Source: a virus. From it: a DNA stretch of 64,000 bases. Location: positions 1 through 64,000 of IMG/VR virus record IMGVR_UViG_3300007504_000003. One strand, 5' to 3'. The notes under the pieces were generated by a model that worked only from the letters and a program-made list of their open reading frames with translations, did not search any database and had not been told where the DNA came from. Shown here piece by piece: positions 5,365 through 63,782 of the stretch. The stretch's first letter is position 1, and each line of letters starts with the position of its first letter. The position numbers and the translations under genes are program-made.

Positions 5365-6372
5365 ATGCAACGATCCGCCCGAGCTAGTGTCAAGCCCGTC
5401 CGTCAGCGGACGCAATACACCTGCGTCCCTTGCTCTCTCTCAATGGCTCTACAGGCGTTGGGGATCGACACGACTGAGGACGAGGTCAACAAAGTTCTCG
5501 GAGCCCGCCCCATGAAAGGGGCGAGCTGGGAGCAGGTACTCGCGGCGGCTCAGCACTACGGCTGTAGAGCTACGCTGACCATGCCGTCTACCGTGGCTCA
5601 ATTGAAATCCTGGACGGATCGCGGGGTCCCGGTACTCATCGCCTGGAATCCCGAAGGCCGGGAGTGGAGTCACGCGAGCACGGTCTTCCATGTAGAAGAC
5701 CGGGGGGAAGGAGAGCAATTTCTCCACATCGCAGACCCCAACATCCCCAACCCCAGCAAGACCGTCCGGGTTGTCCACGAGGACGAGTTTTACGGGAAGT
5801 GGTACGAGAAGTGGCCGAACTATCTTGTCCGCCGCCCGGCGGTCGCTATCGAACGGGAAGTGACCCCGGAAGGAAGACAGGTGCAAGCAAGCCGAAAGCC
5901 GGGTGACCCGGAGTACCAGGAGTGGGCTGAAGGGCAGCTTGAGGAAGTCGTCAGCCAAAAGGGTATCGAGGCTAGAAGCCTCCCAGGCCAGATCGGGATG
6001 CTCGCCTGGGAAAACGGCTACGAAGGGATCCCCCTTGAGCCCTGGCTCCTCTTCCTCGGCAAGACCTATCGCGTAGACGTGCGTGGGGAGCATAAGAAGG
6101 GCGAGAACGGTGCTCGGGGGATCTTCGCGGCTCAACGGGTCGCTGACCGGTGGCTGACCGCGAGGAAAAAGAAGAAGAAGACCCAACCTGTCGTTCAGAA
6201 GAAAGACCCCAACGCCCCAACCAAGAGGCCGGCTCCCAAGAAGAGGAATGAGATAGTCCGTCACCTCATGGAGAAGGGCGGACCTCGGGGCGGGACTCAC
6301 GGTGGGGGTAAGCGAACCCGGAATCGTCGTGACCGTCAGAAGTCCAAGCGTGACCTCCGACAGCACGACTAG
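5365..6372 (+). CDS. C39-like cysteine peptidase with a basic C-terminal extension
   Basis: QRTQYTCVPCSL (Q...C), WSHA (His), IADPN (Asp); contains RVADRWL. Confidence 0.8.
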   Translation: MQRSARASVKPVRQRTQYTCVPCSLSMALQALGIDTTEDEVNKVLGARPMKGASWEQVLAAAQHYGCRATLTMPSTVAQLKSWTDRGVPVLIAWNPEGREWSHASTVFHVEDRGEGEQFLHIADPNIPNPSKTVRVVHEDEFYGKWYEKWPNYLVRRPAVAIEREVTPEGRQVQASRKPGDPEYQEWAEGQLEEVVSQKGIEARSLPGQIGMLAWENGYEGIPLEPWLLFLGKTYRVDVRGEHKKGENGARGIFAAQRVADRWLTARKKKKKTQPVVQKKDPNAPTKRPAPKKRNEIVRHLMEKGGPRGGTHGGGKRTRNRRDRQKSKRDLRQHD

Positions 6373-6384
6373 GAGACCGAAGCA

Positions 6385-8166
6385 ATGATGACCCTGGCTG
6401 AGATGAAGGCTGCCCTTCAAGTGGACGCCAAGTTCCCGAAGGGCGTGAAAATGACCGTGGACGAAGTCGCTGCGGTTGTGGGGCCTGAGTTCAAAGAAAT
6501 GAACGAGGACCCCCCTCCTTCCGTGCTCAAGGTCCGGGAGGAGATGCAGAAGCAAGGGTCTTCCGCGGAAGACCTGATCTCCCGGCTCGCTTCGGAAAAC
6601 AACCTCCGCTTCCCAGGACGCGACCAGGAGGATCTGACCTCCCGTTTTGCCGGGATCGTCGAGGAAAACCCGGACTTCTTCCACGGCAACCTCGGGAAGA
6701 AGAGGGAAGAGATGCCCCAGCTCCGGGGGGAGCATCTTCCAGGCTTCTTGAACAGCCTGGAAGAAGGAGGCATCCAGGTGGTCCGTCTGCCGATCCCAGC
6801 GTCAACGCTGATGGCGACTCAGATGGAGATGGACAGCGAGAAAGTCTCCACTATGATCGCCAACGTGGAGTCCGGAAAGCAGACCCTTCAGGATCTCGCG
6901 GGAGAGGTTCTGGTCTCCCACGACAACCACATCCTCGATGGGCATCACCGATGGGCAGCCGTATTCGCCCTGGACCCCTCTTTTGAGATGCCCGCCATTC
7001 GGATCGGGATGGATATTGAGGGCTTGCTGGAAGCTGCTGAGATCTACGGCGGAGCGAAGCACGAGACCGTCAGACAGGCTTTCTCCGAGATCATCGCCAA
7101 GGCCGCTTCTGTAGAGGACTACGGGGATTCTCCCAGGATTGCGGCTTACCTGGGCTACCCGGTCCCCGAAGAGCCCGGAGTCCTGGTGTGGAACCTGCAA
7201 GCGTACATGAACGAAGGTCCAGGCGCCGCCGGGATGTTCAAGACGGTCAGGGATAAGCGAACCGCATCCGAAGGCGGTGCGGTTCCGATTCTCCTCCGCA
7301 TCCCGGCAGGAACAGTAGTTCACCAGATTCGTGCCTCTCGGGAAGGGCTGGTGAACCGGCTCCAGGCGACCGACTTGACTCCTGAGCGGAAGCACAGCGG
7401 GCTCTACGGCTTCAGGAAGGCGACGCAGAGGGACTGTGAGACCTGCATCCGGAAGCTCCAGCGGCGGGCTGTCAAGATCGCCAGGAAGCTCTGGGCCACG
7501 GAAGGTCAGGAAGCCGTGGACTTCCTGACCACCCACAAGGCCCGGACCAAGAGCAGGACCGCCAGGGTGCTGCTGACCGCGATGAAGGGGCTCGGCCCCC
7601 GCATCGCGGAGAAGATCTCCAAGGTAGCCTCTGTTGGGGGCCCCGTTGTCCAGCTCGCCACGGACGACACCGAGGTTCGGGTGTACGAGTCAGGAGGTCG
7701 CTTCTTCGGCCTCAGCTCGACGGAAGGAGAGAGCACTCTTCAGGCCAGTGACTTCAGCCATAGCCAGATGGCTGCCTGGATTCGTGAACGGATCGCGAGA
7801 AACCCGAGCATGACCGTCCTCTCCCACGACCAGGAGCGATTCGTTCTGGAAGTTCCCACGGGGGGCGTCGGGAAGACCGCCAGCGGGAGCCACGGTCTCT
7901 ATGGGTTCCGGTCCAAGACAGCCGATCGATGCCTCCAGGCGTGCTCTCAGGTGCGGAAGGCTTCCGGCGCGGTCGCTGTTGATCTTCACCGACGTCGAGC
8001 AGAGCAGCACGGCAGGATCACCGGATTCCTCAAGGCTCATTGCAGCGGGAGTCGGTGTCAATTCGCCAAGATGTTGCTCGACGCCTATCCGGACGCAAAC
8101 CGCCGACTCGCGTCAGTGGAGCTGCCCCCGCCGCCCAACTCCGTTGAAGGCTGGCTGAGCCTCTAG
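6385..8166 (+). CDS. Multidomain protein with a ParB/Srx-like domain and a duplicated GLYGF module; putative virion protein
   Basis: VLVSHDNHILDGHHRWAA motif, two GLYGF..C..C modules and six [KR]xAS sites. Confidence 0.7.
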   Translation: MMTLAEMKAALQVDAKFPKGVKMTVDEVAAVVGPEFKEMNEDPPPSVLKVREEMQKQGSSAEDLISRLASENNLRFPGRDQEDLTSRFAGIVEENPDFFHGNLGKKREEMPQLRGEHLPGFLNSLEEGGIQVVRLPIPASTLMATQMEMDSEKVSTMIANVESGKQTLQDLAGEVLVSHDNHILDGHHRWAAVFALDPSFEMPAIRIGMDIEGLLEAAEIYGGAKHETVRQAFSEIIAKAASVEDYGDSPRIAAYLGYPVPEEPGVLVWNLQAYMNEGPGAAGMFKTVRDKRTASEGGAVPILLRIPAGTVVHQIRASREGLVNRLQATDLTPERKHSGLYGFRKATQRDCETCIRKLQRRAVKIARKLWATEGQEAVDFLTTHKARTKSRTARVLLTAMKGLGPRIAEKISKVASVGGPVVQLATDDTEVRVYESGGRFFGLSSTEGESTLQASDFSHSQMAAWIRERIARNPSMTVLSHDQERFVLEVPTGGVGKTASGSHGLYGFRSKTADRCLQACSQVRKASGAVAVDLHRRRAEQHGRITGFLKAHCSGSRCQFAKMLLDAYPDANRRLASVELPPPPNSVEGWLSL

Positions 8167-9391: not shown

Positions 9392-9398
9392 CGGTTCT

Positions 9399-10607: not shown

Positions 10608-10656
10608 AAATGTCTCCGATGTGTCCCTCTTATACGACCAGGGAGCCGGAACTACC

Positions 10657-12424: not shown

Positions 12425-13498
12425 ATGCCTATCAACCCCCAGGATTTGTCTCTTCGGCTTCAGACGCTTGAAGCCGTCGCCGGGGAACCGCTAGGGGCGT
12501 GGTCTCAGAATCCTTACGTTGGATGGCAGCGGGCGAAAGCCTGGGTCGAGAACGAAGGCTCTGACATGGACCCCCTCTGGACGGCAGAACGAGATCATCG
12601 ATTCTGGTCGGCTTTTGAGGGTGCCGTTCTCGGATACCTCAAGAAGAACATGGGCCCGGCTGACTCCAGCCGGAACACGCCCGAAGAGGCGTTCTCCTCT
12701 ATCCTGATGGGTATCCCCCTCGGGGCTGGGCAGATCCGTGACCCCCTCTTCCGGGGGATCGGGAAGCAGCTCCGGACCAAGATCCTTCGGGGTCAGGCGA
12801 AGCCCCTGGATGTGCTCCGGCTGGCGATCAGGGGAGGCAAGCAGCGAGCGAATGACGAGCTGCGGGTATCTGGAGACCGGATCCGTCACCGCGATGAAGG
12901 GACTGACCTGACAGCCCCGGGAAGCTCTGACGACCCGAGGCATCGCCGTCAGTTGGGTGACCCGGGTCAGGCCCCTGCTTTCGCCCCTGAGGAAGGCGGC
13001 GTTAAGGAATTCCTCGGCAAGGATGCCCGGGAAGCCGTCATCCAAGCCATCACGAGGGGGATGGTGGGAGAGGGTCAATCCTCCCCGATCTGGCAGCGTC
13101 TCATCTCGGTGTGGCTCGGTCAGGATGACCGCTTCCCCAGGGCGAAGGCAAGTCCCCGTGAGGTTCAGGTACTCCAGGCGATTCGGGAGAACTACCGAAA
13201 CCTTCAGCAGAAGAGGCGGGAGCAAGGGGAGCCCGGGACTGAGGGCTACGACAGCAGCCTCGATTTCAAGTGGAAGGATGTAGCTGGACTGACTGGCCTC
13301 ACACCGGCTCAGGTGAGCCGGTCTATCCGGAAGCTTGGTGACAAGATCAACACGTTGCTCAAGTCTCCTGGTGCTGTAGAAGACCTGTTCAACACCCCCC
13401 AGCTTCGTCAAGAGCTGACGCAGCAGATTCGACTCGCGAAGACCAGGAAGAAGAAGGCGGCAGAACGAGTCGCCCTCAGGTGGTTGGAACAAGACTGA
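12425..13498 (+). CDS. Divergent sigma-factor-like protein
   Basis: C-terminal HTH KWKDVAGLTGLTPAQVSRSIRKL; region-2-like AIRGGKQRANDELR; ends in RVALRWLEQD. Confidence 0.5.
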   Translation: MPINPQDLSLRLQTLEAVAGEPLGAWSQNPYVGWQRAKAWVENEGSDMDPLWTAERDHRFWSAFEGAVLGYLKKNMGPADSSRNTPEEAFSSILMGIPLGAGQIRDPLFRGIGKQLRTKILRGQAKPLDVLRLAIRGGKQRANDELRVSGDRIRHRDEGTDLTAPGSSDDPRHRRQLGDPGQAPAFAPEEGGVKEFLGKDAREAVIQAITRGMVGEGQSSPIWQRLISVWLGQDDRFPRAKASPREVQVLQAIRENYRNLQQKRREQGEPGTEGYDSSLDFKWKDVAGLTGLTPAQVSRSIRKLGDKINTLLKSPGAVEDLFNTPQLRQELTQQIRLAKTRKKKAAERVALRWLEQD

Positions 13499-17125: not shown

Positions 17126-17260
17126 AACCCGGGGAATTCCACCATAGGTACTATATCGGGATCCTTTGGATCGGCAGTCCTTCGTGGTCCTCGGTAGGGG
17201 GTTTATAGCCCTGGTTCTATGCTGTCATCGTTTTTGGACCCCCTCCTCCGAGGCGCCGTG

Positions 17261-20200
17261 ATGCCCGAAGTTCTCCCTGTTGATTCCCGCTCCAGCAGCA
17301 TCACGGCTCCTTCACTGACCTACCCGGAATCAGGCTCTTCCAAGGGGTTCTTCCGCAACCCCCTGTCGGAGTTCATCTACGTCCGCACGTATAGCCGCTG
17401 GTTGGAGGCTGAAGGCCGCCGGGAGACCTGGGATGAGTCCGTGTCCCGGTACTTCGACTTCCTCGCTCAGGAGCGGCCTGAGGTCCCTCAGGCGGTACTT
17501 CAGGAATGTCGGCAGGCGGTCTTGGACATGGAGGTCATGCCCTCGATGAGGGCCCTCTGGTCTGCGGGTGAGGCAGCACGCCGGGACAACACCTGCGTGT
17601 ACAACTGCTCGTTCCACCCGGTTGACAACCTCCGGGCGTTCTCGGAGCTGCTCCATGTCCTGATGTGCGGGACCGGGTGTGGGTTCTCCGTGGAGAAGGA
17701 GTTTGTCTCCAACCTCCCCCCGGTCGGGGACCTCAAGGGTGGCGACCCGATCCCTTACGTGATCGGGGACAGCACGGAGGGCTGGGCTGATGCGTTGTTC
17801 TTCGGGATGACTCACTGGTGGAAGGGCTACCGGGTCGCCTTTGACTACAGCCAGATTCGGGCCGCGGGGTCGGTCTTGAAGATCAAGGGTGGTCGGTCCA
17901 GTGGGCCGGATCCCCTCCGTCGGCTGATGGAGTTCGCGGAGGAGGTGGTTCTGGGTGCCGCCGGCCGGCGGATCAAGCCGATCGAGTGCCACGATATCTG
18001 TTGTCAGATCGCTGAGATCGTCATGGTCGGCGGCTTCCGCCGAGCGGCTCTCATCTCCATCTCCTCTCCGGATGACGAGGAGATGAGGCACGCGAAGGAC
18101 TGGAGTCGTGGGGACTTCCCCACGATCCGCTACATGTCGAACAACTCGGCGTACTGGCTGGATCGGCCTTCTGAAGAAGTTTTCTGGGGCGAGTGGTCTG
18201 CCCTGGTCCGCTCCAAGTCAGGAGAGCGAGGGTTCCTGATCGACAACTGGCACAAGCGGGCGGCGCTTCGGGAGCCGAACACCTGTCGGACCAACCCCTG
18301 TATCAGTGTCCGCTCCTGGGTCAACACCCTCAACGGGCCTCGGCAAGTCTCCCAGCTCATCGGGCAGCCTTTCGAGGCAATCGTGGACGGCAAGGTTTAC
18401 TCGTCCAGCGACCGTGGCTTCTGGCTCACGGGTGAAAAGGAGCTGTTCCGACTGGCGACGACGGAAGGCTACAGTCTGGAGCTGACGGGGAACCACAAGG
18501 TCTGTCGGGTAGTTCAGTCCCGTCGAGTCCAGAGGTTCGAGTGGGTGGAAGCCTCTGAGCTGGAGGCTGGCGACCTCATCCGGCTCAACAACCACCGGGC
18601 AGTCGAGCTGGCTGGGGACGAGGTCGCAAAGGCTCGTGGCTGGCTGATGGGTTCCTTGCTGGGTGACGGCACCTTCACGGTGGAATCCTCCGAGACCAAG
18701 AGCGATCACGGCCACCTTCGCTTCTGGGGTGACGACGCTGAGCACATGGCTGTTCAGGCGTTAGAGCGGGTCAAGACGGCAGGCTTGAGAATCCGAGCTG
18801 ACGCCAAGCCCAACCAGAACAAGACCAACGGGTGCTGGCAGGTCTCCAGCACGGCTCTGGCTGGGATGGCAGAGACTACCTATGGGATGGTCCCGGCCTC
18901 CAAGACCATCACCCGGAAGTTGGAGCAGGAGACCGAGGACTTCATCTCTGGGTTCCTGTCGGGGCTGTTCGATGCAGACGGGTCGGTTCAGGGTTCGCAG
19001 GAGAAGGGTGTCTCGGTTCGGCTGGGGCAAGCCAACCTGAACACCCTGGAAGCTGCTCAGCGGATGCTGCTTCGGCTCGGTGTCGTCTCCACTATCTACA
19101 AGGAGCGTCAGCCTGAGGGCTACCGCAATCTCCCCGATGGCAAGGGAGGCTATGGCTCCTACTGGTGCAAGGCAATGCATGAGCTGGTCATCGCCAAGGA
19201 CAACCTGTTCCAGTTCGAGTCGATGGTTGGGTTCACCGAGCCTGCGAAGGCGGCTCTCCTGGTGGACCTGCTGGGTCAGTACCGTCGCCAGCCGAACCGG
19301 GAGCGGTTCGTGGTTCGGGTCGAGTCCATGACCTCGATGGGCGTGGAGAAGGTCTACGACTGCACCGTCCCGGAGCTGGGGGCCTTCGATGCCAATGGGC
19401 TCTACGTCCACAACTGCTCGGAGATTTCCCTCCGGTTCTCCAGGGCGACGGATCCCTGGACGGGTGAGGGTGGTGGGGGCAGCTTCTGTGTCTCCGGGGA
19501 CACTCCGCTCATTACCCGGCAAGGTCTCTACAACATCAAGGATGTTGTAGGCAAATCTGTGGAAATCTGGAATGGGGAACGGTGGTCTGAAGTTCGCCCT
19601 TTTCAGACTGGAATCGGGCAGAAGCTCTATCGGGTCCACATGTCGGATGGCTCCTACCTGGACACCACGGCGTACCATCGTTTCTCGGTGTCAACCAAGG
19701 ATGTCAGGTCGGGAAAGTTCAAGGCGATGACGGTAGCCGAGATGCTCGACAACCCCATCAAGGCTGCTCGTCGTACTGAGCCTTTCCAGATCGTGCAGGA
19801 GGGGGGACAGTCGGTAGGCTCTGATTGGGCTTACACGATGGGGGCTATTGTTGGGGACGGGACTGTCAGGCGGAAGACTCGCAAGTCCGGTTACGTTTGG
19901 GAGGGTTCCTACGCGGAGTCTTTTGGGGCGAAGGATAGCGTCATGCCCATTCAGGGGGTCGCCGGCAACCCTCGCGTTGCCAACGCAGGGAATTTGGCTT
20001 TGCAGAAGGTCTCCTATTTCTGTGCCAACCATGATCCCGAGATGGTCTCCGCTCTGAAGACCGACCCGGAAGCCCTTAACGGCGTGTTCCAGTGGTGCCG
20101 TGAGGACATTCTCAGCTTCCTGGCAGGGTGGCTGGATGCTGATGGAACCGCCACCGATACAGGTCGTGTGCGGCTCTACCTGAGTGGTGAGGCTCGGGCG

Positions 20201-43896: not shown

Positions 43897-44115
43897 ATGT
43901 CCTCTCGACCTGACACGACCCTCTGGGATGTAGCCCAGCTCAACGCTGGGAAATCCGCAGACGCCCGGCCTTTCAGTGGTTCTCACAGCAACCGAAGGGT
44001 TGCTTCCGAGGTGGCTCTTCGTCGGAAGGCGATTCGGCTTGCTTCCGTGACGGAGAACCCGGAGCTGAAGACGGCTCTCCTGGGGGAGCTGAGGAAGGAT
44101 ATTCGTCGAGCATGA
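43897..44115 (+). CDS. Small hypothetical protein
   Basis: LRRKAIRLASVTENPELKTALL module. Confidence 0.55.
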   Translation: MSSRPDTTLWDVAQLNAGKSADARPFSGSHSNRRVASEVALRRKAIRLASVTENPELKTALLGELRKDIRRA

Positions 44116-51500: not shown

Positions 51501-51828
51501 CCAGGCGGAGCATAAGAGCAAGTATGTCACGGTGGTAGAGGCTCCTCCTGGGCGGGACAACCACGATGACCTCTCGGATGCTGTGGTTCGGATGGTGTGG
51601 CTGGCCTCTCAGTCCATCGGAGAAGGTCGGCATCTCGCGACGGGGGGTGGCCCACGTCCAGGTTCGTTGAACAGGCACCCGAATCCCGGATCCCTGTCCC
51701 GAGCACGCCGTAAGGCTCTCCTGGGTGGGAGTTCCCTGAAGCGTATGGATCCCCGTAAGGCGAGGGCGGGGGGGATGAGTCCATATCGGGGGCTGGTGAT
51801 GGTCTCCCACAAGAAAAAGAAGAGGTGA
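48499..51828 (+). CDS. terL: Terminase large subunit with intein
   Basis: Walker A GRRSGK|T split by the intein, ILDEVAHF, IILISSP, nuclease motifs GFDFA and HDDLSDAV. Confidence 0.92.
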   Translation: MSLADLARNVGRTTTTQGREVADIITFIEAPWGLDFKLFPVQRVILKVHYGLALDDNEFDYPLDAPVPEDHPHYDPEVLDHDGYYKHRLVISDWQRKNYQYLTEAGYLRYLHDDGRCNVREVVPGHERREMILSVGRRSGKCLKAGSLVLTSKGVLPIESLGDPEGPEHQPCRITVAQEGRQTTAESAYFYNGGVREIRDLKTYCGFRLGGTPNHRIKVMSPEGFVVWKYLGDVEEGDFVAIHRGTNLWPQEYLDVSPYWSDLGRKDLSLPTHLTEEWGLLLGALVGDGSWTRDRVVELTVACPEFRVEMKALWTRLFGGFKEQGVGHSPKTTRIQFHSLGARQFLHDLGWVYDADRRSKMVPWSVMQSTAPVVRAFLRGLFETDGGMESNGKVVSFCSASERLAHEVQTLLLNLGIVSRIRAKWNKTYERNYYILIVRGLRHRQMFAERVGFVSRRKMEPLWAGLKSSSREGGNSESIPYLREWGSKLLASVPTSKPGQGWSRSDLRGVMGNTIKPSSTEQMTYPRLEKTLAEARRLGADQEIVQHLQEIYDLDYFFDPVVSVEQGEEAVYDLNVPQGSMFVANGMTNHNTTISACIAAYETYKLLLKGDPHRYYGLPHSNVIQLISVATDKDQAGLLYREVAGHFKSCDFFSPYMANNTMSYANFQTPYDIDQYGSYADDPKARSSIKITFRSCVAKGLRGAGNILVILDEVAHFTDAGQSGADEVYQAVTPSTSAYSPKDPADKRLPIGEVEGRIILISSPLGKTGLFYDQYTLGFQPGPSENMICVQAPTWEVNPTIPAHEFEKHYLKDVRVFFTEYGAVFSDRTRGWIENEDDLLACIDPARRPRFRGRSRFPHYLGFDFAMVGDASAVAIGHVEDRNVVVDFVDSIQAGEGQYADVDRLRMEWVADWLKDLSQRFYLVNGMFDQWAGLPLEQALEDRGLTQIRAEHFTAPLSSRIYRNFYNMMQERRVVLYDWPRPVDEHGIEQHCPYIAEMLTLQAEHKSKYVTVVEAPPGRDNHDDLSDAVVRMVWLASQSIGEGRHLATGGGPRPGSLNRHPNPGSLSRARRKALLGGSSLKRMDPRKARAGGMSPYRGLVMVSHKKKKR
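48922..50271 (+). mobile_element. Intein in the TerL Walker A motif (450 aa, LAGLIDADG)
   Basis: CLKAGSLV...ANGMTNHN|T; motifs GALVGDG and GLFETDG. Confidence 0.92.
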
Positions 51829-51833
51829 GGTAG

Positions 51834-52102: not shown

Positions 52103-52426
52103 ATGCCAACACGAAGCCACGCCCGCAATGCCCCGAATGAGCGAGAGAAGCGTCTTCTTGTTCATCTGGTGCGTGCTCAGAGAGAGCTGGACTCCGCTCT
52201 GAGGCTTTGTCGGGAGGCTGCTCGTCGCGATGAAAATCCCGAGCGGAAGAAGGCTTATCGGAGAATGTCCGTGAACCTGATGCGTCTACACAGGCAGGTC
52301 AGTGAGATTCAAGGGACTCATCGGATTCAGGATCCGGTGTCCCCGGCGACCCCTCCCCTGAGTCGGGATGCGTTTTCGAGTCTGGTCCGTGGGGTTCAGG
52401 CAGACCTTGGGGTGACTGATGGCTGA
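52103..52426 (+). CDS. Hypothetical helical protein
   Basis: Overlaps the portal start. Confidence 0.5.
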   Translation: MPTRSHARNAPNEREKRLLVHLVRAQRELDSALRLCREAARRDENPERKKAYRRMSVNLMRLHRQVSEIQGTHRIQDPVSPATPPLSRDAFSSLVRGVQADLGVTDG

Positions 52427-55400
52427 TGAACCTACGACAGGCTCGGGGTCTCCCCCGGGTAAGCCGCCACGTCGTCTCGCGTCGATGGGTCCGGATCTGT
52501 CTGAGCAGGAGGGAGTCCCGGTGAGTCGAGTGAAAGATCGGAGCAAGGTCCGAGTCGGCAAGCCGAAGAGGCTCGTCCGGGCTTCCTCGATGCGAATGGG
52601 CTACAGCAGCTCAGGGCTCGGGTCGGCCAGCACTGTGGATGCGGCTCACGGGAACTACTACCACCCGGAGCTGAGCACCGATTTTCTGGAGCTGCCCCAG
52701 AGTCAGCAGGAGCAGTGGAACTTTTATCGGCACTTCTACCGGTCTCATCCCTTCGTGGGGCAGGCGCTTGATCTCCATACGGAGTTGCCTCTGTCGAAGG
52801 TCCGGATCTCGCCTCCTAAGGCGAGGAACCGGGATTTGGCGATGGCGGCTTCGCGGTTCTGTACTCGCTGGGCACAACGAATCAAGCTGCTCTCTCGTCT
52901 CAGGGAAATCGTCCACGAGTATCACCTGTTGGGCGTGGTGAACATCTACGCAGAGGATACCTCTCCGGATATGCCGGATGAGGTGCGGTTCCGTTCGGAC
53001 ACGTACCTGGAAGAGACTCCAGATGGAGAACCGCTCCTCAGGACAGAGCGACGGCTCCGGGAGGACGCCAACGAGCGTGCCGTTGCGTGGTTGAAAAAGA
53101 ACTACAAGGGGTGGACAGCCCTGCGGGTTCTTCCACCTGAGCAGGTGGATGTAGAGAGCTTCCCTTTCACTGATGAGAAGCTGTTTAGTCTCCGCCCAGA
53201 CAAGCGGACTTTGACCCTGGTTGACCGGGCTCGTGGGGGGGATCGTCGAGCACGTCGGGTGTTGGAGTCCATGCCTGTGGAGGTGGTCAAGGCTCTACAG
53301 GATGGGGAGGCTATCCCTCTCAACACGGATCCGGACGCCGGCTCCTTCATCTACCACATGGAGCGAAAGCGGTCGCAGTACGAGAACCGCCCCCACAGCA
53401 TGTTGGAGCGGTGCATCCTCCCAGGCACCCCCATCACGGTTCTTCGGAACAACACCATACTTGAAGTACCTGTCGAGCTGGTCAACGTCGAGACCGATCT
53501 CCTGCTCACGCATACCGGAGCCTTTCATAAGGCTGAAGCAGGCTCCCGCCCTGTAGCGGAGGACATTACTGTTCTTTGGCTCGATGGCGAAGACCGTCCC
53601 CTATGCCTCACCTCAGACCACCCGCTCCTCCGTCTTGACGACGACAGTTCTGAGAAGTGGGTTTACGCCGGGAATCTCAAGGAAGGTGACACCCTCCGAG
53701 AAGCCCACCCGGTCCCTACTTCAGGACACCCTGAAGTCATCGATCTCGCTGCTTGGTGGGAGAATAAGGGCTCGCTTCAGGTTGAGCGTCGAGTTCGGGA
53801 CAACCAGCAAGGTCTGGTTGTTGACACCACCCGTGAAGTTCGGGTAGCCGAAGTCATGGCGGATGAGGAGGGCCTTACGGTCCACTTTGAGCATGACCAG
53901 GACGATGTAGGACGTGTCAGAACCGTCGAGAACGACCGGCGACTTACTCGTTGGCTCAAGTCCCTCAAAGAATCAAAGACGGCGTCCTCGACGGCTGTGG
54001 CCGCCGTTACGGGGCTCACCAAGTCCGAGGTCCAGAACGCTGTCCGTCGTTTCGAGAGAGATGTGCCTGCCTTCCATCGGACAGTCGAGGGGCGAAAGGT
54101 CACTTGGTACCCTCTCCCGGAGACTGCCACCTCCCCAGGCTCAGTCGTCACCAGAACAGAAACCAGCTCTATTCACCAGATCCCGCTCACCCCCGATTTC
54201 ATGTACCTCCTGGGTACATGGTTCGGAGATGGTTGGGCTTGGAAGGCAAAGGGCAAGTTCCTCAACACAGTTTGCCTTGCTTGGTCTATCGATAAGAACG
54301 CCGACAAGCTCCGGTCTCGAATCCGAGACCACCTGGAGACCTTCTTCGGGGCAGATTCCGTGGTCGAGGGCAACCTGTTCTCTGGTTCCGGCTCCTCTAC
54401 AGAGAATCTCCGGGTTGAAGATTCCTTGTTGGCTCGGTGGTTTTACGAGGAGTTCGGAGGATCGGCTCAGACCAAGACAGCCCCCAAGTGGGTGTTCGAC
54501 CTTCCTGAGCAGCACATCTTGTCCTTCCTCCAGGGTCTTCTGGACACCGATGGTTTCTGTCGAGCAGGCCGGGTCTCGACTGCTCTGGTTCAACTGGACA
54601 ACGAGACTCTCATCCGTCAGGTCCATCTGCTATGCAGCCGAGTCGGGATCAAAACACAAGTGAGACCTGTTCGCCGGGAAGCCCGCAGTTGGACACGCAC
54701 CTGGGTGACGACGGAAGGGGTTCAGGAGAAGACTTACGACTACGAGCCTAAGACCTTCTGGCAGGTGTCCTGCACCCGACATGAGGATGTTCTCAAGTGG
54801 GTCTCCGGGACCATCAAGGGTGCCGAGGTCAACTGGCCGGAGAGGAACCACTCCTGGGGGAGCCCGTTCCAAGACGGGTGGCTGACCCGGAAGGTCAGGA
54901 AGGTCGAGACCGTCTGGTACGAAGGGCTTGTCCACTCTTTTGACGTTGAAGTAGATTCGAGCCTTGTTGCTCTAAGTGTCTGTATTCACAACTGTATTCG
55001 GACGCTCGTCCACCAGGATAAGTTGCGACAGGCAAATGCTTCTATCGCCTCTCGGCATATGACTCCGGTGAGGATCGTCTGGGCGGAGGATATGGACGCC
55101 GCGGACACGGAGGCTCTTCGCGATCAGGTCGATATGGCTCTCGCGGATCCAGATTTCTCCATCGTGGCGAACTTTGAAATTCGCTGGGAGGAGATGGGGG
55201 GAGGACAGGGGAACCGACTCCTTGAGACCTCCCAAGAGTATGACCGGGCGGATCGGGAGCTGTACGCCGGCCTCAGTGTCACCGAGTCTCTTCTGACAGG
55301 AGAGTCAACCTACTCCGCCGACAGGACGAGCCTGGAGGTTATCAACACCCGATACATGTTCCTTCGGGAGTTCCTTCAGGACTTCGTTCAGGACTGCCTA

Positions 55401-55787
55401 TTTGAGCCCATGTGCCGTCGAATGGGTTTTATCGAAGAGGATGAAGATGGGGAAGAGGTGGTCCTGACTCCGCTTCTGAGCTTCACCCGGTTGGGCATCC
55501 GGGACACTCAGGACACCTTCGACGCCTTCATGAATCTCTACCAGAAGGGTTCACTCCCGGTGGAGACCATCTATGAGTTGCTCAACATCGATCCGGTGAC
55601 CGCGACTGAGAAGCTCAAGGAGGACTCCATGACGCTTCGGGACGCGACCTTCAACGAAGTCTTCCGAGGTCTCTATAGCGAGGTAGCTCGACAGTTGGTT
55701 GAGGGCTCTGACGCCGTGGATAAGATCGCGAAGATTCTGGGGCTGGAGTACGAGAAGCCGAAGGAGGACTCTGGAGGGAGGTTCTAA
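52419..55787 (+). CDS. Portal protein with intein
   Basis: FYRHFYRSHPFVGQALDLHTELPLSK N-terminal portal pattern, LRVLPPE and GLSVTESLLTGE; downstream of terL. Confidence 0.8.
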   Translation: MADEPTTGSGSPPGKPPRRLASMGPDLSEQEGVPVSRVKDRSKVRVGKPKRLVRASSMRMGYSSSGLGSASTVDAAHGNYYHPELSTDFLELPQSQQEQWNFYRHFYRSHPFVGQALDLHTELPLSKVRISPPKARNRDLAMAASRFCTRWAQRIKLLSRLREIVHEYHLLGVVNIYAEDTSPDMPDEVRFRSDTYLEETPDGEPLLRTERRLREDANERAVAWLKKNYKGWTALRVLPPEQVDVESFPFTDEKLFSLRPDKRTLTLVDRARGGDRRARRVLESMPVEVVKALQDGEAIPLNTDPDAGSFIYHMERKRSQYENRPHSMLERCILPGTPITVLRNNTILEVPVELVNVETDLLLTHTGAFHKAEAGSRPVAEDITVLWLDGEDRPLCLTSDHPLLRLDDDSSEKWVYAGNLKEGDTLREAHPVPTSGHPEVIDLAAWWENKGSLQVERRVRDNQQGLVVDTTREVRVAEVMADEEGLTVHFEHDQDDVGRVRTVENDRRLTRWLKSLKESKTASSTAVAAVTGLTKSEVQNAVRRFERDVPAFHRTVEGRKVTWYPLPETATSPGSVVTRTETSSIHQIPLTPDFMYLLGTWFGDGWAWKAKGKFLNTVCLAWSIDKNADKLRSRIRDHLETFFGADSVVEGNLFSGSGSSTENLRVEDSLLARWFYEEFGGSAQTKTAPKWVFDLPEQHILSFLQGLLDTDGFCRAGRVSTALVQLDNETLIRQVHLLCSRVGIKTQVRPVRREARSWTRTWVTTEGVQEKTYDYEPKTFWQVSCTRHEDVLKWVSGTIKGAEVNWPERNHSWGSPFQDGWLTRKVRKVETVWYEGLVHSFDVEVDSSLVALSVCIHNCIRTLVHQDKLRQANASIASRHMTPVRIVWAEDMDAADTEALRDQVDMALADPDFSIVANFEIRWEEMGGGQGNRLLETSQEYDRADRELYAGLSVTESLLTGESTYSADRTSLEVINTRYMFLREFLQDFVQDCLFEPMCRRMGFIEEDEDGEEVVLTPLLSFTRLGIRDTQDTFDAFMNLYQKGSLPVETIYELLNIDPVTATEKLKEDSMTLRDATFNEVFRGLYSEVARQLVEGSDAVDKIAKILGLEYEKPKEDSGGRF
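53412..54992 (+). mobile_element. Intein in portal (527 aa, LAGLIDADG plus an extra HTH)
   Basis: CILPGTPITV...VCIHN|C; motifs GTWFGDG and GLLDTDG; insert STAVAAVTGLTKSEVQNAVRRF. Confidence 0.9.
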
Positions 55788-57602: not shown

Positions 57603-60600
57603 ATGAATCAGCATGTTCAGGTCGCTGCGGAGCTTCGCCGTCGCATGGGGAGTCTGGTGTATACCAGCTCGGGTGTGTTGTATGTCCTGACACCCGAGAC
57701 GCTGGCTCAGTTGTCTGAGGGTGACCAATGGGTCGGGCTGGTGTCTTCGGACGATCTGGAGGGGGCTCACCGGCTTGTAGAGCACTGCGGCGGGGGTGTA
57801 CTCCGGGAGCCTTCGTCGGGGACCTATGCGGTAGAGACCGTTGCCAAGTGGGGTCGTGTAGGGGCTCAGGTCGGGACTGATACCGCCGCGGTCTGGGCGA
57901 TTGCTCCGGAGCAGCTCCATCATTTTATCGAAGATGAGGGGCTCGCTGGCCTGGATTGGCAGGTGTGGGCGAATCGCTGGGAGGATCTGGAGTCGTCCTG
58001 GCGTGCTCATGGCGGCGCCGTCTTTCATACGGGTGGGGACGGGGGGTTTGAGGTTGAGGTTGAGGGAGCGGTGCGTAGTCTGGGTTTGACTCGCCCCTAC
58101 GGTACCCCGCAGTACCGGGAGGCTGGCTGGTGGGCGATCACTCCAGAGGACCCTGGAATCAACCCGCCGCCCGTGGATAAGGGCGGCCTCATGAACGCGG
58201 TCCCTGGCGTCGATCCTGATGAAGGGGCGTTGTATAACGGGGACGGCCCAGCGGACATGATGGAGGCAGTCCTCGATGAGATCGACATGATCTATCGAGA
58301 GGCGTGGGGTCGTGGGGCCACCGTGGCGGAGATGGATGCCGTCTGGGAGTTTATCTTTCGCGGGTACCGGAAGGGAGCGAAGGCGTCGGGCTGGAATGTC
58401 TGGGTAGACAAGGCGGTCGAGTTGACCGGCGTTCCAATGAAGGTTCTCCTCCTTTGTCTGGACGAGTCGAGGACTCGGGACGCTGTTCGCCTTTGGCGTG
58501 AGGGGTCTGAGCGCGGGGACTTTACGGGGTTCGGGGAACATATCAAGGCGTGTGTCAGTCTCGCCTGGGATGATTCTTCTTTCATGATGGAGCAGCTTCC
58601 AGCGAAGCCGGATTCGGTCAAGTTACTCCTGGCTCGCCAGTACCGGCAGGCGTTTGATGAGGAGCGTTTGACGGAAGCTGGTAAGGCGATCGAAGGGTTC
58701 TCTCTCGGGATGGCTCTGGCAATCACGCAGGGGTTTGTGAGCACCCACCCGTTCTTCGACCTGGGGGAGATCCGACGATTCATCCAGATCCGGAAGAAGT
58801 ACCACGGGGTGTTTACGGCAGCCGCCGCTGTGCTGGCGGAGTATTTCGGGGACGCCCCTCGATTCCAAGCCGCTATCCCGGGTCTCAGGCGGATCTCTAT
58901 CATGCCCCCGGCTCAGGTTCGGGGAGCCTTGTCCGCGGGCGTTCAGGCATTCCGGTCGCTAGGTCGTGTTCGGGTGTCGGACCTCCCCGGGTACGAGTAC
59001 CAGTCTCCTCCGCGATTGGTAGTTCAGTCCTTCGTCGCGATTCACCGAGCCTTGCGGCTCTCGGGTCTTGAGGAGCGGGGGGACTACTACCGGGCATTCT
59101 CGGACCTGGAGACCCTTCTGGACGTCTTCCTCCGGAGTCGTTCGACTCCCGCCCCCGTGAAGACTCTCTTCCGTAAGCTGAAGCTGCTGGGCATCCCCAG
59201 GGACAGCGCAGACGTGCTCCACTTCGACGCAGACCCCGGGGCTTGGTTTGACCTGACTTCGGACCAGAGAGCGGGAATCCGTAGAGAGGTTCTCGGCCTC
59301 CAAGATGAGCTGTCCTCGTTGTTCACTCGGGACATGGACGTGGAAGAGCGTTCTGCGGAAGCAAAGCGGCTGATGGGGGCGTTGTCGCAGATTCAGGCCC
59401 GAGCCGGCATCCACCTTGCTCATCTCATGGAAGAGGACCAACCTCCTCTGGACAAGGTGCTTCGATCCGAGGCTCAGGTGAACCGGGACGGGCCGACAGA
59501 ATACGTCTTGGATTCGTTCAAGAAAGACCTCCTTTCCTCCTGGGAGGAGAGCCCCTCTTTCCGGCCGAAGCTCCTCAGTAAGCGAGAGTTGGGGAAGCTG
59601 TTCACGACGCTGGACAAGGTGAAGACGTTCTCGACGATGGAGCGGGTGATCAAGACTGCGGTTCGTCGTGGTCTGCTCCATAAGACCGCTCTGGAGACGC
59701 TGACGAGCAAGCTGGATAAGGCTCGTCGAAACAAGGCTCTTCGGGACAATCCTGTCCTGGCCCCTCTCCAGTGGGAGCCGATGACGGAGCAAGAGTTTGT
59801 CGCGGCTCATGATGCGGGAGGCGTTGATTTCCGAGGAGATGCTTGGACTGAGGAGCAGAAGGCAGAGGTGCTGGGCCGGGCGAGCCGGGCGATTGTGGAC
59901 TTGGAGGGCGTCTTCGGGAAGGGGTTCTGCGGCAGGCACGCCAGGAAGTTGATGTTCCGGTTCCACGAGGGCTCCGGGACGGGGTCGGGAGCCCTCGCTC
60001 ATTACTTCGGGTGGGAGGATCGGAATCGCTGGCAGCCTCGGGTGAGCTTCGGGGAGGATTTCGACGGGCTATTAGCCCACGAGCTGTCTCATTACTTTGA
60101 AGACCTCCTGGCCTTCCGGATTGAGAAGGCGACCAACCCGGACATGCCAGAGTACCAGTATGGGGACGTAGCCCATGGCTGGGGAGACCTCTTCGGGAGG
60201 ACGGGGACCTCTCTCCGTCAGTTTGTGGAGAGGTCGGGCAATAGCACGATGGGGAAGGCTCTTCAGGAGCACTTCCCGGAGTTCTTGGAGCTGATGGCGA
60301 CGGTGGTGTCCACGCCCGATTATGCTCGGTGGGAGGACAAGATCGGCGGTGCCCTCAGTGACGCTCTCTATGAGGCGATCACTGAGGTGACGGGTCAGAG
60401 CCCCTATGCCGAGGGCAACGAGCAAGCTCGTGGTTGGATGGATGCTCAGTACCAGTCAGACCTCCCTCCGGAGGTACTGGAGGCAGCCAAGCGGAGGGCG
60501 ATTCGGCTACGGGATGGGGATCCGCGGAAGCTTACCTACTACCACTCCTCCCCAGAGTGCTGGGCTCGGCTCTGCGAGCAGTATGTCTACACGAAATTGG

Positions 60601-61346
60601 CCCGCCAGGGGATCGCGAATCCCTGGCTGACGCAGTTGACCTATGACGTGGATGTGTTGGACCAGTTCGTAGAGGAGGCCACCTTTGAAGAGCGGATCGA
60701 ACCTCTCATGGACGCCGTGTTCAACAAACTCCGGGACCGCTCGATCATCGCCCGGGTCGTTCGTCGAGAGCAGGAGCTATCTCGGATAGTTGATAGAAAG
60801 TTGATCCTGTTAAAAACAGGTACTTACGAGCGTCTCCTCCGCTGTGGGGCGGCTGAAGGAGATGGTTCTCGGGTTGGTGTCTTCATCCCCTTGCCCGCGA
60901 ATCTGGCTCAGCAGTTCCCCTCTCTCAAGGAGGATTCGAGCCCTGTTCATGTGACCTTCCTGTACGCCGGGAAGGTCTGGGAGGAGGGGTTGTTCATGGA
61001 GATTCTGAGGCGTCGGCTAGGGGAGCTGGAGGCTCCTGTCCAAGCGAGGCTGGACGGTCAGGACTTCTTCCGCAACGCAGACGGCTACATCCCTCATGTC
61101 CGGGTTCGGTTCGATCAGGATCTTGCTCGGGTTCGGAAGCTAGTGATCGACGATCTTCGGGAGGCGGGCTGGACTCTGGCGGATAGGAGTCAGATGGTGT
61201 GGCGGCCTCATGTCACTCTCGGCTACCAGAAGCCCCACTCGGAGCATTATCAGGGTGAGGTCCCGACAGGCGGTTGGGAATTTGATCGCTTGGAAGTCTG
61301 GGGCCTGGAGCGTAAGAAGGTTTTGCTCCTGGGCAAAAAAGCCTAG
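57603..61346 (+). CDS. Large polyvalent-type protein: zincin metallopeptidase (LPD1-like) plus C-terminal 2H phosphoesterase
   Basis: LLAHELSHYFED and YYHSSPECWARLCEQYV; 2H motifs PVHVTF and RPHVTL. Confidence 0.75.
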   Translation: MNQHVQVAAELRRRMGSLVYTSSGVLYVLTPETLAQLSEGDQWVGLVSSDDLEGAHRLVEHCGGGVLREPSSGTYAVETVAKWGRVGAQVGTDTAAVWAIAPEQLHHFIEDEGLAGLDWQVWANRWEDLESSWRAHGGAVFHTGGDGGFEVEVEGAVRSLGLTRPYGTPQYREAGWWAITPEDPGINPPPVDKGGLMNAVPGVDPDEGALYNGDGPADMMEAVLDEIDMIYREAWGRGATVAEMDAVWEFIFRGYRKGAKASGWNVWVDKAVELTGVPMKVLLLCLDESRTRDAVRLWREGSERGDFTGFGEHIKACVSLAWDDSSFMMEQLPAKPDSVKLLLARQYRQAFDEERLTEAGKAIEGFSLGMALAITQGFVSTHPFFDLGEIRRFIQIRKKYHGVFTAAAAVLAEYFGDAPRFQAAIPGLRRISIMPPAQVRGALSAGVQAFRSLGRVRVSDLPGYEYQSPPRLVVQSFVAIHRALRLSGLEERGDYYRAFSDLETLLDVFLRSRSTPAPVKTLFRKLKLLGIPRDSADVLHFDADPGAWFDLTSDQRAGIRREVLGLQDELSSLFTRDMDVEERSAEAKRLMGALSQIQARAGIHLAHLMEEDQPPLDKVLRSEAQVNRDGPTEYVLDSFKKDLLSSWEESPSFRPKLLSKRELGKLFTTLDKVKTFSTMERVIKTAVRRGLLHKTALETLTSKLDKARRNKALRDNPVLAPLQWEPMTEQEFVAAHDAGGVDFRGDAWTEEQKAEVLGRASRAIVDLEGVFGKGFCGRHARKLMFRFHEGSGTGSGALAHYFGWEDRNRWQPRVSFGEDFDGLLAHELSHYFEDLLAFRIEKATNPDMPEYQYGDVAHGWGDLFGRTGTSLRQFVERSGNSTMGKALQEHFPEFLELMATVVSTPDYARWEDKIGGALSDALYEAITEVTGQSPYAEGNEQARGWMDAQYQSDLPPEVLEAAKRRAIRLRDGDPRKLTYYHSSPECWARLCEQYVYTKLARQGIANPWLTQLTYDVDVLDQFVEEATFEERIEPLMDAVFNKLRDRSIIARVVRREQELSRIVDRKLILLKTGTYERLLRCGAAEGDGSRVGVFIPLPANLAQQFPSLKEDSSPVHVTFLYAGKVWEEGLFMEILRRRLGELEAPVQARLDGQDFFRNADGYIPHVRVRFDQDLARVRKLVIDDLREAGWTLADRSQMVWRPHVTLGYQKPHSEHYQGEVPTGGWEFDRLEVWGLERKKVLLLGKKA

Positions 61347-61365
61347 TTGGTTCGTATAGAGGGAC

Positions 61366-62634
61366 ATGTCGCCTTACGCTCCAAGAATCGCGGACCTTTG
61401 GCTGTCCCGCTCTGCGGATTCGGCTGCCCACGTTCGTTCAATCGCGTTGATGCGGTTTCTCTCCCGGCTGGCTCTCCGGCTGGGGAGAGCCGTGGCTGAG
61501 AACGTCTACGTGGTGGGCGGGGCGGTTCGGGATTTCGTCTTGGACCGTCCGATCAAGGATATCGACGTGGTGATCGACTCCGTCTCTCTCGGGAGAGACA
61601 GCGAGTGGTTCGCCCGTCAGATTTCCGCAGCCGTCCCGGCTCGGACGTCGCTGGTGACCAACAACTATGGGGTCGCCATTCTCACCATTTCGGAGTCCTG
61701 GGTTCTGGAAGGTGTGGAGATGCAGGGCGAAGTGATCGAGATCGCCAATGCCCGGACGGAGTCCTATGGGGGTGCTTCAGGGAAGGGCTACAAGCCCTCG
61801 GAGGTCGCTCCGGCGAGGATTGAGGATGACGTGGCACGCAGGGAGTTGTCCTACAACACCTTGATGATCCGGCTCCTCCATCTGGCGGACGGGCCGGATA
61901 AGGCAGACATTCTGGACCTGACGGGCTGCGGCCTCAGTGACCTGGAAGCTGGGATTATGCGTTGCCCGGCGGATCCCAACATTGTGTTCTCCGACGACCC
62001 GAGCCGGATGATCAGGGTGATTAAGTTCGCTCTTCGTTACGGGCACCGTCTCACTGAGGACACTCGGGCGGCGATCCTCAACAACGCGGAGAAGATCAAG
62101 AACATCCCGGGCGGGCATCTCATCAACCTCCTGACGGGGATCATCCTCCGTGAGGCGACCTGGAAAGAAGCCCTTCAGTGGATGCAGGATCTGAACCTCC
62201 TGGCACCGATCAGGGAGATGGTGCTGTCGGACGAGCAGCTCAAGACCTCTCTCATCAACCACATCCGGGGTTACCGGTTGGAGATGCTGTTCAGCTTGAT
62301 GGATCTGGGATTGCCGGTGGGCTACCGCGTGCGTTTCCTCCCTCGGGCGGATCAGAGTCATCTACGCGACTCTATCGGTCACTGGCCGGCTGAGGAAGCG
62401 TGGGGGTTCGTGGAAGCCTTGCGGAACCCTGGCGTCATCATCCAGGACAAGAAGTTTTTCCCTGAACTGGCTCGGGAGCATGGGTTCCTCGGCCCTCAAA
62501 TCGCGGGGTTCAACCGCGAGGTGTACCTGCCCATAGCTCGGAGGATCCTGATGGGGGATCCCCACATTCGGTTGAGCCCGGCCCGCTTTCGACGAGAGAT
62601 CGCTGACCGAGTCAGGGCACGTCTTCGGCGGTAG
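61366..62634 (+). CDS. Class II CCA-adding enzyme / poly(A) polymerase family nucleotidyltransferase
   Basis: VVGGAVRD, KDIDV, ARTESY, DDVARRELSYN and FSDDPSRMIRVIKFA. Confidence 0.9.
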   Translation: MSPYAPRIADLWLSRSADSAAHVRSIALMRFLSRLALRLGRAVAENVYVVGGAVRDFVLDRPIKDIDVVIDSVSLGRDSEWFARQISAAVPARTSLVTNNYGVAILTISESWVLEGVEMQGEVIEIANARTESYGGASGKGYKPSEVAPARIEDDVARRELSYNTLMIRLLHLADGPDKADILDLTGCGLSDLEAGIMRCPADPNIVFSDDPSRMIRVIKFALRYGHRLTEDTRAAILNNAEKIKNIPGGHLINLLTGIILREATWKEALQWMQDLNLLAPIREMVLSDEQLKTSLINHIRGYRLEMLFSLMDLGLPVGYRVRFLPRADQSHLRDSIGHWPAEEAWGFVEALRNPGVIIQDKKFFPELAREHGFLGPQIAGFNREVYLPIARRILMGDPHIRLSPARFRREIADRVRARLRR

Positions 62635-62657
62635 GTTCTCTATCTCAGTGGGGTGAT

Positions 62658-63782
62658 ATGAAGGATTACCCGCCCTCTCGTCTTGTAGCCTCTCGTTGGT
62701 TGGTTGCATCCAAGTCGAAGTACCGATCCGTTTTGCGGCGGGGTCGCTCTCGCGTGGAAGCCGCCTACCGGCAGGATGATTGGACTGCGGCTGCGGCTGC
62801 CTATGAGCAGGCGGCTTCGGCTCTCCGTCCCCTCGGGGGACTTCTGGATGGGGTTACCGTCGAGCGGCAGAGTGAGCGGAGGAAGCTGAAGAACGTCCGC
62901 CGGAACCTGTCTCTGATCAAGCGGTATACGGCTCCTGGCTTCCTCCGAGATACCGAGTATCAGACCGCCTATTGGGCTTGGAGTAGCTGGGAGACGCTAG
63001 AAGATGCCGTGAAGGCTGTTCTGAGAGTCTGGGAGCGAGTGACCGGGTACCAGAGCTTGACTCGCTCCTTCCAGCACGGCCCTTTCACGGTTGAGAATCA
63101 CTACGGCTACCGTGAGGAGGAATTGGCGGCACCCTTATCGCTCCTCTCAGGAGCGATGGATCAGATCCGCTCCCGGGGGTTTGAGGAGGTCTTGTACGGG
63201 GTCGTTCAAATAGTGAGCCCGAAGAGCGGGGGGTTCTGTGGGAGGTACTTCAAGAATGGGGACTTCCTTCAGATCAACGCGGATTGCCAGTACCGCTTAG
63301 GGGCTGTTCATACGGTGGTCCACGAGCTAGGTCACCGGTTCTGGTTCCAGAAGATGACGTCCGCACAGCAGAAGGCATATGACGACGCCTATTCGGGTAC
63401 AGCAGGCGTTGTGTTCTCTCTGGGGGACCGGGAGGACATGTGGCAGGCGTTCAAGGAAGCCGGGTACACCCTCCGAGGTGCTCATCGGCGGTTGAGGAAC
63501 CCCGCCTTGCGGGAGCATCTCTCGGATTATGTCCGGGAGAGGAGGAAGGGGTTGTTGATCGTCCCGGACCCGCGGACGGGGTTCATGGAGGCCCATGCTC
63601 AGAGAGCTTTCGTGGTCCCTTCTGTGAGAAACTTCTTCCTGGGCCGCCCCGTCTCCGTGAGTGATTACGCTGAAACAGGCGGGGTGACGGAGGATTTCGC
63701 TGAGGTCTTCGCGTTCTTCTGCACCGGGAAGAGGGTTGACGCAAGGGCTCTGGAACGCTTCCGGGACGCGACCGGCCGCTAG
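62658..63782 (+). CDS. Zincin-like metallopeptidase
   Basis: VVHELGHRFW and VSDYA..EDFAEVF; N-terminal LVASRWL tag. Confidence 0.75.
   Translation: MKDYPPSRLVASRWLVASKSKYRSVLRRGRSRVEAAYRQDDWTAAAAAYEQAASALRPLGGLLDGVTVERQSERRKLKNVRRNLSLIKRYTAPGFLRDTEYQTAYWAWSSWETLEDAVKAVLRVWERVTGYQSLTRSFQHGPFTVENHYGYREEELAAPLSLLSGAMDQIRSRGFEEVLYGVVQIVSPKSGGFCGRYFKNGDFLQINADCQYRLGAVHTVVHELGHRFWFQKMTSAQQKAYDDAYSGTAGVVFSLGDREDMWQAFKEAGYTLRGAHRRLRNPALREHLSDYVRERRKGLLIVPDPRTGFMEAHAQRAFVVPSVRNFFLGRPVSVSDYAETGGVTEDFAEVFAFFCTGKRVDARALERFRDATGR

Follow-up and report, generated by a model that had tools for sequence, protein, structure and literature searches.

The 64,000-nt window analysed here (positions 1 to 64,000 of the IMG/VR virus record IMGVR_UViG_3300007504_000003) encodes a set of mostly unrelated proteins that carry the same short peptide, R-V-A-x-R-[WY]-L, at their termini or at the junctions between their domains. 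The window makes up the first half of one contig of 126,159 bp (GC ~60%), which is a fragment of an uncultured huge phage of the phage G type, and the motif is a real, undescribed terminal tag that is common to the clade of this phage. We consider it an evenly balanced possibility (probability: approximately 0.5) that the tag is a docking helix which brings accessory enzymes into the prohead and is subsequently clipped off. This interpretation was ranked first because the tag is located outside a candidate clip site on diverse enzymes encoded among the head genes, which is the logic of the capsid-targeting sequence (CTS) of phage T4.

Identification and sequence conservation of the tag

Copies of the motif were located by a six-frame regular expression scan, after which a position-specific scoring matrix (PSSM) was built from the 14 strong copies and applied to the whole contig. 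These 14 copies are distributed over 13 proteins and all are found in coding frames of the + strand. The strict pattern RVA.R[WY]L occurs ten times in the + frames and is absent from the three - frames, while 0.0067 occurrences are predicted from composition over 38,266 coding residues and a maximum of one was observed over 300 shuffles of the proteome. The strong copies score between 21.3 and 29.9 bits with the PSSM, and every other six-frame position scores at most 18.6 bits. The next-best match on the + strand, RVADRWS, is located three residues from the C-terminus of a 499-amino acid (aa) protein and is probably a fifteenth copy. All eight copies listed in the first-pass annotation, which had been made from the sequence without database searches, were found by the scan where that annotation had placed them.

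Pairwise identity among the copies amounts to 0.81 at codon positions 1 and 2 and 0.41 at position 3, and all synonyms are used at the conserved codons. As the third codon positions vary freely, selection is exerted on the peptide and not on the DNA. By blastp, the tagged proteins are mostly unrelated, the exceptions being one pair of zincins and one shared domain. The extended form of the motif reads [AS]-x-R-V-A-x-R-[WY]-L-x-[AG], with an Ala or Gly two positions after the Leu in 10/14 copies, while the residue that follows R-V-A varies freely (D, S, A, L, Q, F, N or R). The hydrophobic residues V, A, W/Y and L at positions i, i+1, i+4 and i+5 occupy one face of a helix, and the residues flanking the copies are 21% basic (Lys/Arg), compared to 12% proteome-wide. 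On the basis of this spacing and composition, the motif is predicted to form a short basic amphipathic helix, one to two turns in length, within basic disordered linkers. The suggestion that it represents a portable amphipathic helix, placed on the termini and junctions of unrelated proteins, is thus borne out by the positions of the copies, the blastp comparisons and the spacing of the residues.

Distribution of the tag among proteins and along the contig

Eight of the 14 copies are located within 20 residues of a protein end, where 2.75 would be expected. Five copies are N-terminal, three are C-terminal (3, 4 and 7 residues from the end) and six are internal, namely those at aa 258 of a C39-like peptidase, aa 117 of the 499-aa protein, aa 639 of a 903-aa protein, aa 156 and 793 of a 1,345-aa protein and aa ~112 of a 329-aa open reading frame (ORF). 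At least one of the internal copies, that of the 499-aa protein, is by its alignment a former N-terminal tag of a fused zincin module, with residues 118-469 of this protein, from the tag onward, aligning by blastp with residues 10-358 of the N-tagged zincin-type protein 62658-63782. In the related 485-kb metagenomic phage LR745208, the modules that flank three of the internal tags are differently arranged, with the breaks occurring at the tag positions. The 1,345-aa protein (L002:7657-11694) combines a Topoisom_I domain (Pfam; e-value: 3.7e-24; aa 201-405), corresponding to the core of a eukaryotic-type topoisomerase IB (TopIB), with a HEIGH module and bears two strong tags. The TopIB module of LR745208 is encoded by a shorter gene, which ends right after two tag-like motifs.

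All copies in the window are encoded on the + strand. The first, RVADRWL (6136-6156; aa 258-264; 29.9 bits), is found in the C39-like peptidase 5365-6372 between the peptidase domain (Pfam Peptidase_C39_2; e-value: 2.4e-9; aa 8-146) and a Lys-rich tail. In the 357-aa protein 12425-13498, RVALRWL (13466-13486) lies three residues away from the C-terminus. This protein had been labelled sigma-like, but sequence and profile searches, the only kind made, against Pfam, PHROGs, NCBIfam and the PDB sequences returned no match, sigma-70 regions 2 and 4 included, and the label is therefore without profile support. TVARRWL (40605-40625) occurs near the N-terminus of the 104-aa protein 40563-40877, orthologs of which start with MAK-[RS]VAxxW[LV]; the start codon in this contig is uncertain and may be the GTG at 40563 or that at 40608. 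RVASRWL (42523-42543; 29.8 bits) forms aa 6-12 of a 42-aa ORF (42508-42636) which overlaps the upstream stop codon by ATGA and has no counterpart in LR745208, and which may not be a gene. The 206-aa protein 44402-45022 is tagged at both ends, with RVADRYL (44420-44440; aa 7-13) at the N-terminus and a weaker, degenerate copy, RVAHRSL (44984-45004), at the C-terminus, where its homologs have RVAxR[YHF]L. RIADLWL (61384-61404) constitutes aa 7-13 of a CCA/poly(A)-polymerase-type nucleotidyltransferase (61366-62634; PolyA_pol e-value: 3e-16), and homologs of this enzyme from other phages align from aa ~11-47 on, most of them from aa 38-47. LVASRWL (62682-62702) is likewise N-terminal (aa 9-15) in the HELGH-containing, zincin-type protein 62658-63782. 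Additional copies are found beyond the window at contig positions 64157, 65978, 67923, 69632, 70125 and 72036 (L002:2154, 3975, 5920, 7629, 8122 and 10033, respectively), as well as at 113826.

Eleven of the 14 copies lie within the head module at 40.5-82 kb (Fisher p = 9e-4), where they form two groups, one on small conserved genes just before the terminase gene and the other on 7/8 genes of the array between the portal and prohead protease genes. The first-pass annotation had noticed no tag in the replication-block proteins, and this holds over the 8,048 residues of the block, which contain no copy. The weaker copies that it reported before the 2H domain could not be substantiated: the best PSSM score in the LPD1/2H protein 57603-61346 is 8.6 bits, which is the background level, and no real tag is present. 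The terminase, portal, protease, scaffold and capsid proteins also lack a tag.

The 206-amino acid family and candidate protease sites

The 206-aa protein belongs to a family with 830 homologs at an e-value of 1e-10 or lower, all of them unnamed or hypothetical, the best 120 of which were used for counts of the layout. Members of the family comprise, in order, the initial Met and a few residues, the N-terminal tag, about eight residues, the motif [KR]-T-A-G-E, a conserved helical core, an acidic linker, the motif [KR]-x-A-[SA], the C-terminal tag and a final stretch of about five residues. The N-terminal tag is present in 70/112 homologs, at a median distance of 7 aa from the start and 8 aa ahead of [KR]TAGE, which itself is present in 109/117. 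A C-terminal tag, at a median of 5 aa from the end, is found in 48/108 homologs, and 41 of these 48 have a [KR]xA[SGAT] motif between the core and the tag. Many members of the family have a second such motif, KTAS, between the N-terminal tag and KTAGE. The tag consensus of the family is [RKN]-[VI]-A-x-R-[YFHW]-L, while Trp is preferred in this contig. In the protein encoded in the window, the corresponding motifs are RTAGE (44459-44473; + strand), between the N-terminal tag and the core, and KMASS (44948-44962; + strand), between the core and the C-terminal tag, and both are candidate sites of the maturation protease.

An AlphaFold model of the family shows the N-terminal tag as a short helix at residues 5-16 (predicted local distance difference test, pLDDT: <50), followed by a disordered linker and a helical core (pLDDT: 70-90). 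A Foldseek search of this model against BFVD and PDB returned nothing at an e-value of 0.001 or lower, with generic helical hairpins as the only matches, while the protein sequence weakly matches CdvB3 of NCBIfam (e-value: 0.034). A subclade of the family (e.g. P0035, P0038 and P0041) is without an RVA tag and its members end in ...DDALFAAYFGRS.., which, from its identical hydrophobic spacing, is possibly a variant tag. In the public annotation, the gene 44402-45022 (P0001) is called with a length of 194 aa instead of 206 aa, which fits a start at the TTG codon for the tag Leu. The longer form is supported by an AGGAG sequence 7 nt before the TTG at 44402 and by conservation among orthologs. 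Gene callers can thus start inside the tag, and such tags may as a result be under-reported in annotations.

Motifs of the same type are found in other head proteins. A [KR]-[TVQA]-A-[SG] site is located ~22 aa before the conserved C-terminal tail of the scaffold, and another (RTASS) follows the catalytic part of the prohead protease and is retained in the closer relatives. Within the head module, 39 [KR]xA[SG] sites were counted compared to 23.1 in shuffles (z = 3.8), and an excess over shuffles is likewise observed in the left arm of the contig (z = 4.5), while the replication block shows none. We infer from this distribution that [KR]-x-A-[SG] is a candidate specificity of the maturation (prohead) protease. 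The tagged proteins outside the 206-aa family have no clear site of this kind.

Occurrence of the tag in related phages

The HK97-type capsid protein of the contig shares 76% amino acid identity with that of LR745208, 44% with that of Tunturiibacter phage Tunturi_5 and 40% with gp27 of Bacillus phage G. At least 227 IMG/VR contigs encode a related capsid protein (confirmed by tblastn), the best 80 of which are 71-82% identical. The first-pass annotation had called for a profile scan of the proteome and of related phages; besides separating the 14 copies in this contig, the PSSM yielded 22 matches at 80 loci around related capsid genes (1.05 Mb), all of them on the coding strand and either near ORF ends or within proteins larger than 900 aa. 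A degenerate DNA pattern for the strict motif matched 14 sites in five complete or near-complete relatives, compared to one site for the reversed control, and 11/12 tagged ORFs in these relatives have the tag within ~35 aa of an end. Their identifiable tagged cargo comprises a GNAT, a 2H/Acb1-like phosphoesterase and two J-domain (DnaJ-domain) proteins. The strict motif is far denser in this contig than in the five relatives. When the 169-aa protein encoded before the protease was used as a query for related loci, no relatives were found.

Genomic context of the tagged genes

The contig encodes a ribonucleotide reductase (RNR), a RecD2-type helicase, RecA and a clamp-loader subunit, in addition to the head module. 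The latter includes, on the + strand, genes for the large terminase (48499-51828) and the portal protein (52419-55787), each split by a LAGLIDADG intein, and, beyond the window, genes for the prohead protease (contig 74888-78949; L002:12888-16949), which contains inteins, an acidic scaffold (contig ~78960-80276; L002:16960-18276), the HK97-type capsid protein (contig 81087-82016) and a decoration-like protein encoded in the same head gene set. LAGLIDADG/Hint inteins also split the RNR large subunit (17219-21436), and two or more are present in the protease. Downstream of the portal gene begins the tagged enzyme array, which extends over 16 kb on the + strand to the prohead protease (57603-64000 in the window and on to contig 73694). 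It encodes five HExxH modules, GNAT domains, TopIB, the CCA-type nucleotidyltransferase and, just after the portal, a 2H phosphoesterase with a weak LPD1 match. The 2H domain of this phosphoesterase scores 34.5 bits, above the Pfam cut-off of 27, while its LPD1 match (23.9 bits) falls under the cut-off of 27.

At the left end of the contig, a PP2C-type protein phosphatase is encoded on the - strand (494-1321; Pfam PP2C_2 e-value: 5.5e-12). A 593-aa protein (6385-8166) encoded directly after the C39-like peptidase contains a ParB/Srx-type DGHHRW motif, two GLYGFR repeats and eight [KR]xA[SG] sites. In these features it resembles a polyprotein, which suggests that the left arm may also encode processed head cargo.

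A promoter-like motif, CGGT[AG]-N7-TAT[AG], was observed at 11 intergenic sites on the + strand, 16-85 nt before gene starts (window positions 12374, 17192, 44352 and 57563; contig positions 65307, 73770, 84091, 91580, 105213, 113449 and 117394). The sites at 12374 and 44352 have 16 identical bases in common (CGGTGAGGAGCCTATA). The motif is found upstream of five tagged genes or operons, as well as upstream of the RNR gene and of a head-tail connector homolog.

Two features of the scaffold may also be recorded. Its variable middle region contains four tandem PDEALLQQMLAEE-type repeats, which were considered as a general receptor of the tag and dropped, as the relatives conserve only scaffold residues 1-138 and 396-438. 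The conserved N-terminal domain contains AAKCIRLAEAML-P, which resembles a second, two-helix tag found, for example, in the 72-aa protein 43897-44115.

Putative function of the tag and alternative explanations

As proposed here, the tag would bind one common component of the assembling prohead, either the scaffold or core or the inner surface of the shell, and the cargo would be loaded before DNA packaging. This cargo would include the peptidases, GNATs, the CCA-type enzyme, the TopIB polyprotein and the small conserved proteins of the head module. Afterwards, the tag would be cut off by the prohead protease at [KR]-x-A-[SG] sites close by. We infer the protease sites, the binding of a prohead component and the packaging and injection of the cargo from the evidence described above. 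More tentatively, and with somewhat less than even odds, we suggest that a single conserved prohead component reads a cargo tag at either protein end across uncultured phages of 0.1-0.6 Mb, the tag being clipped at [KR]-x-A/[SG]. The first-pass annotation had interpreted the motif as an address for packaging cargo into the prohead for injection. The portable helix at termini and junctions, the concentration among head genes and the location of the tag outside the candidate clip sites in the 206-aa family agree with that interpretation, while the sigma factor and the 2H copies are without support, and its 'pre-loaded anti-defence and transcription toolkit' stands as a hypothesis. A complex prediction for residues 238-285 of the C39 protein with the scaffold alignment gave a score of 0.29, under the mark of 0.32, in one run without controls, and weighs on neither side. 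In favour of docking, the flanks of the tag are basic and the scaffold is strongly acidic.

Several observations weigh against docking in the prohead. The protease, the scaffold and the 169-aa and 171-aa proteins, all of which must enter the prohead, are untagged, while three tagged genes (5365, 12425 and 113490) are located outside the head module and the tagged genes of one relative, G004, are scattered over ~310 kb of a 407-kb record. The promoter-like motif was rejected as a marker of late co-expression, as it precedes the RNR gene too. The head regions of phage G and Tunturi_5 do not contain the motif, leaving no cultured proxy; portal, protease and capsid genes are all that these regions have in common with the contig, apart from the head-tail connector in Tunturi_5. 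Finally, R-V-A itself fits [KR]-x-A, so that a protease may recognize or cut the tag instead of the tag serving as an address.

The last of these points leads to an alternative which we regard as unlikely, namely that the motif is mainly a processing signal, either as an extended cleavage or recognition site (R-V-A / x-R-[WY]-L) or as the exosite-docking site of a phage protease, such as the prohead protease, one of the five HExxH modules or the C39-like peptidase, that would cut polyproteins and trim protein ends. The fit of R-V-A extends to the [KR]-x-A-[SG] sites of the scaffold tail, the protease and the 206-aa family, and RVAS is counted among them, but the position after R-V-A is free to vary, whereas the candidate sites have S/G there. 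Zincin-type peptidases have been proposed to process the polyvalent proteins of phages (PMC5512222), and 6/14 strong copies are internal, those in the large array proteins occurring between modules; most copies, however, both in this contig and in relatives, are found 3-15 residues from an end, where cutting would remove almost nothing. In the 206-aa family the tag is distal to one or two stronger [KR]TA[SG] sites, which would make cutting at the tag redundant, yet the tag is conserved, and a binding helix is suggested by its conserved aromatic-Leu face. Were the prohead protease the processing enzyme, the tagged proteins would still have to enter proheads.

It is also improbable, in our estimation, that the motif docks proteins to a hub other than the capsid, be it a host chaperone or protease adaptor, a membrane, a nucleic acid or a phage protein, for the purposes of localization, timing or turnover. 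A basic amphipathic helix with Trp or Tyr in basic linkers is typical too of peptides that bind membranes, RNA or chaperones, J-domains are present on some of the tagged relatives, and some tagged genes lie far from the head genes (5365, 12425 and 113490, and some of those of G004), all of which speaks for such a hub. Against this, the tag is concentrated in the head module, replication proteins do not carry it, and the 206-aa family combines it with sites that also occur in the scaffold and the protease. The motif is not followed by a hydrophobic segment, and it is therefore not a Tat or Sec signal. A Tat signal peptide was further rejected in view of the lack of twin Arg residues, the basic and polar linkers that follow the motif and its occurrence at C-termini. 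A chance or compositional artefact, a DNA-level repeat or the remnant of one duplicated domain is refuted, for while R, V, A and L are common residues at 60% GC, the motif exceeds the compositional expectation more than 1000-fold and lacks - strand copies, its synonymous positions vary, its flanks are unrelated except in one zincin pair, and it is conserved in hundreds of homologs from other metagenomes.

Comparison with known systems

To our knowledge, T4 and a few others are the only large phages whose choice of cargo is understood in detail, and nothing is known of it for huge phages represented by metagenomes alone. A clade-wide tag would turn the question of cargo into a sequence search and point to candidate effectors for injection, several of which are of an anti-defence type (2H/Acb1-like, GNAT and peptidases). 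If the tag is a cargo address read by one prohead component across the clade, the injected arsenal could be listed from sequence and would include topoisomerase IB, the CCA-adding enzyme, GNATs, 2H/Acb1-like phosphoesterases, peptidases and J-domain proteins, and new cargo could be captured by fusing a gene to a tag of 7-10 residues. Being small, the tag would also be of use for bringing foreign proteins into capsids.

Short peptides that direct enzymes into protein shells have been described in several systems. In bacterial microcompartments, encapsulation peptides form a short amphipathic helix at either terminus, with a poorly conserved linker between helix and enzyme. This is the same architecture as that of the tag, but the likeness is one of mechanism by analogy only, as the tagged genes here form part of a phage head module, and no microcompartment shell genes were encountered among the proteins scanned. 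The cargo-loading peptides of encapsulins and the C-terminal tail of the HK97 maturation protease are likewise short, portable terminal peptides, which dock cargo inside an HK97-fold shell or on a scaffold domain. They differ from the tag in their consensus, in being mostly C-terminal and in occurring once per cargo protein, whereas at least 13 tagged proteins are encoded here by a tailed phage with a separate scaffold. Herpesvirus assemblin provides a parallel to the candidate clip sites by their position, and not to the tag, having a conserved x-A-S maturation site ~20-25 residues before the capsid-binding tail of the scaffold and a second site in the protease; the P3 residue, two positions ahead of the Ala, is K/R in the sites described here.

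The polyvalent proteins of phages are encoded beside the portal and terminase genes, and Iyer et al. (2017, PMC5512222) proposed packaging, processing and injection for them. The domain repertoire of this contig resembles theirs, with zincin-type HExxH, 2H, GNAT and ParB-like domains and an LPD1 match below the cut-off. No common linear tag was described for the polyvalent proteins (PMC5512222). Many of the modules in this contig are separate genes, each with a tag of its own, instead of parts of one giant polypeptide.

The closest parallel is found in phage T4, where the internal proteins are diverse defence proteins which have only the CTS in common, and where this sequence loads them into the scaffolding core (PMC3012670; PMC9026906). 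Like the tag, the CTS of IPI-III and Alt is a short peptide common to unrelated proteins, and it is removed by the prohead protease; the order of tag, candidate site and core in the 206-aa family matches this layout. The T4 CTS is strictly N-terminal, while the tag described here is found at the N-terminus, at the C-terminus and at junctions, and sometimes at both ends of one protein. Furthermore, the proteases of T4 and of the SPN3US type recognize a Glu-based site, in contrast to the candidate [KR]-x-A-[SG] clip site. We know of no resemblance in sequence between the CTS and the tag. The chances are about equal for and against the tag being of the capsid-targeting or cargo-loading kind, and among the systems compared here the T4 CTS, which is removed from unrelated cargo by the prohead protease, provides the nearest model for its putative function.

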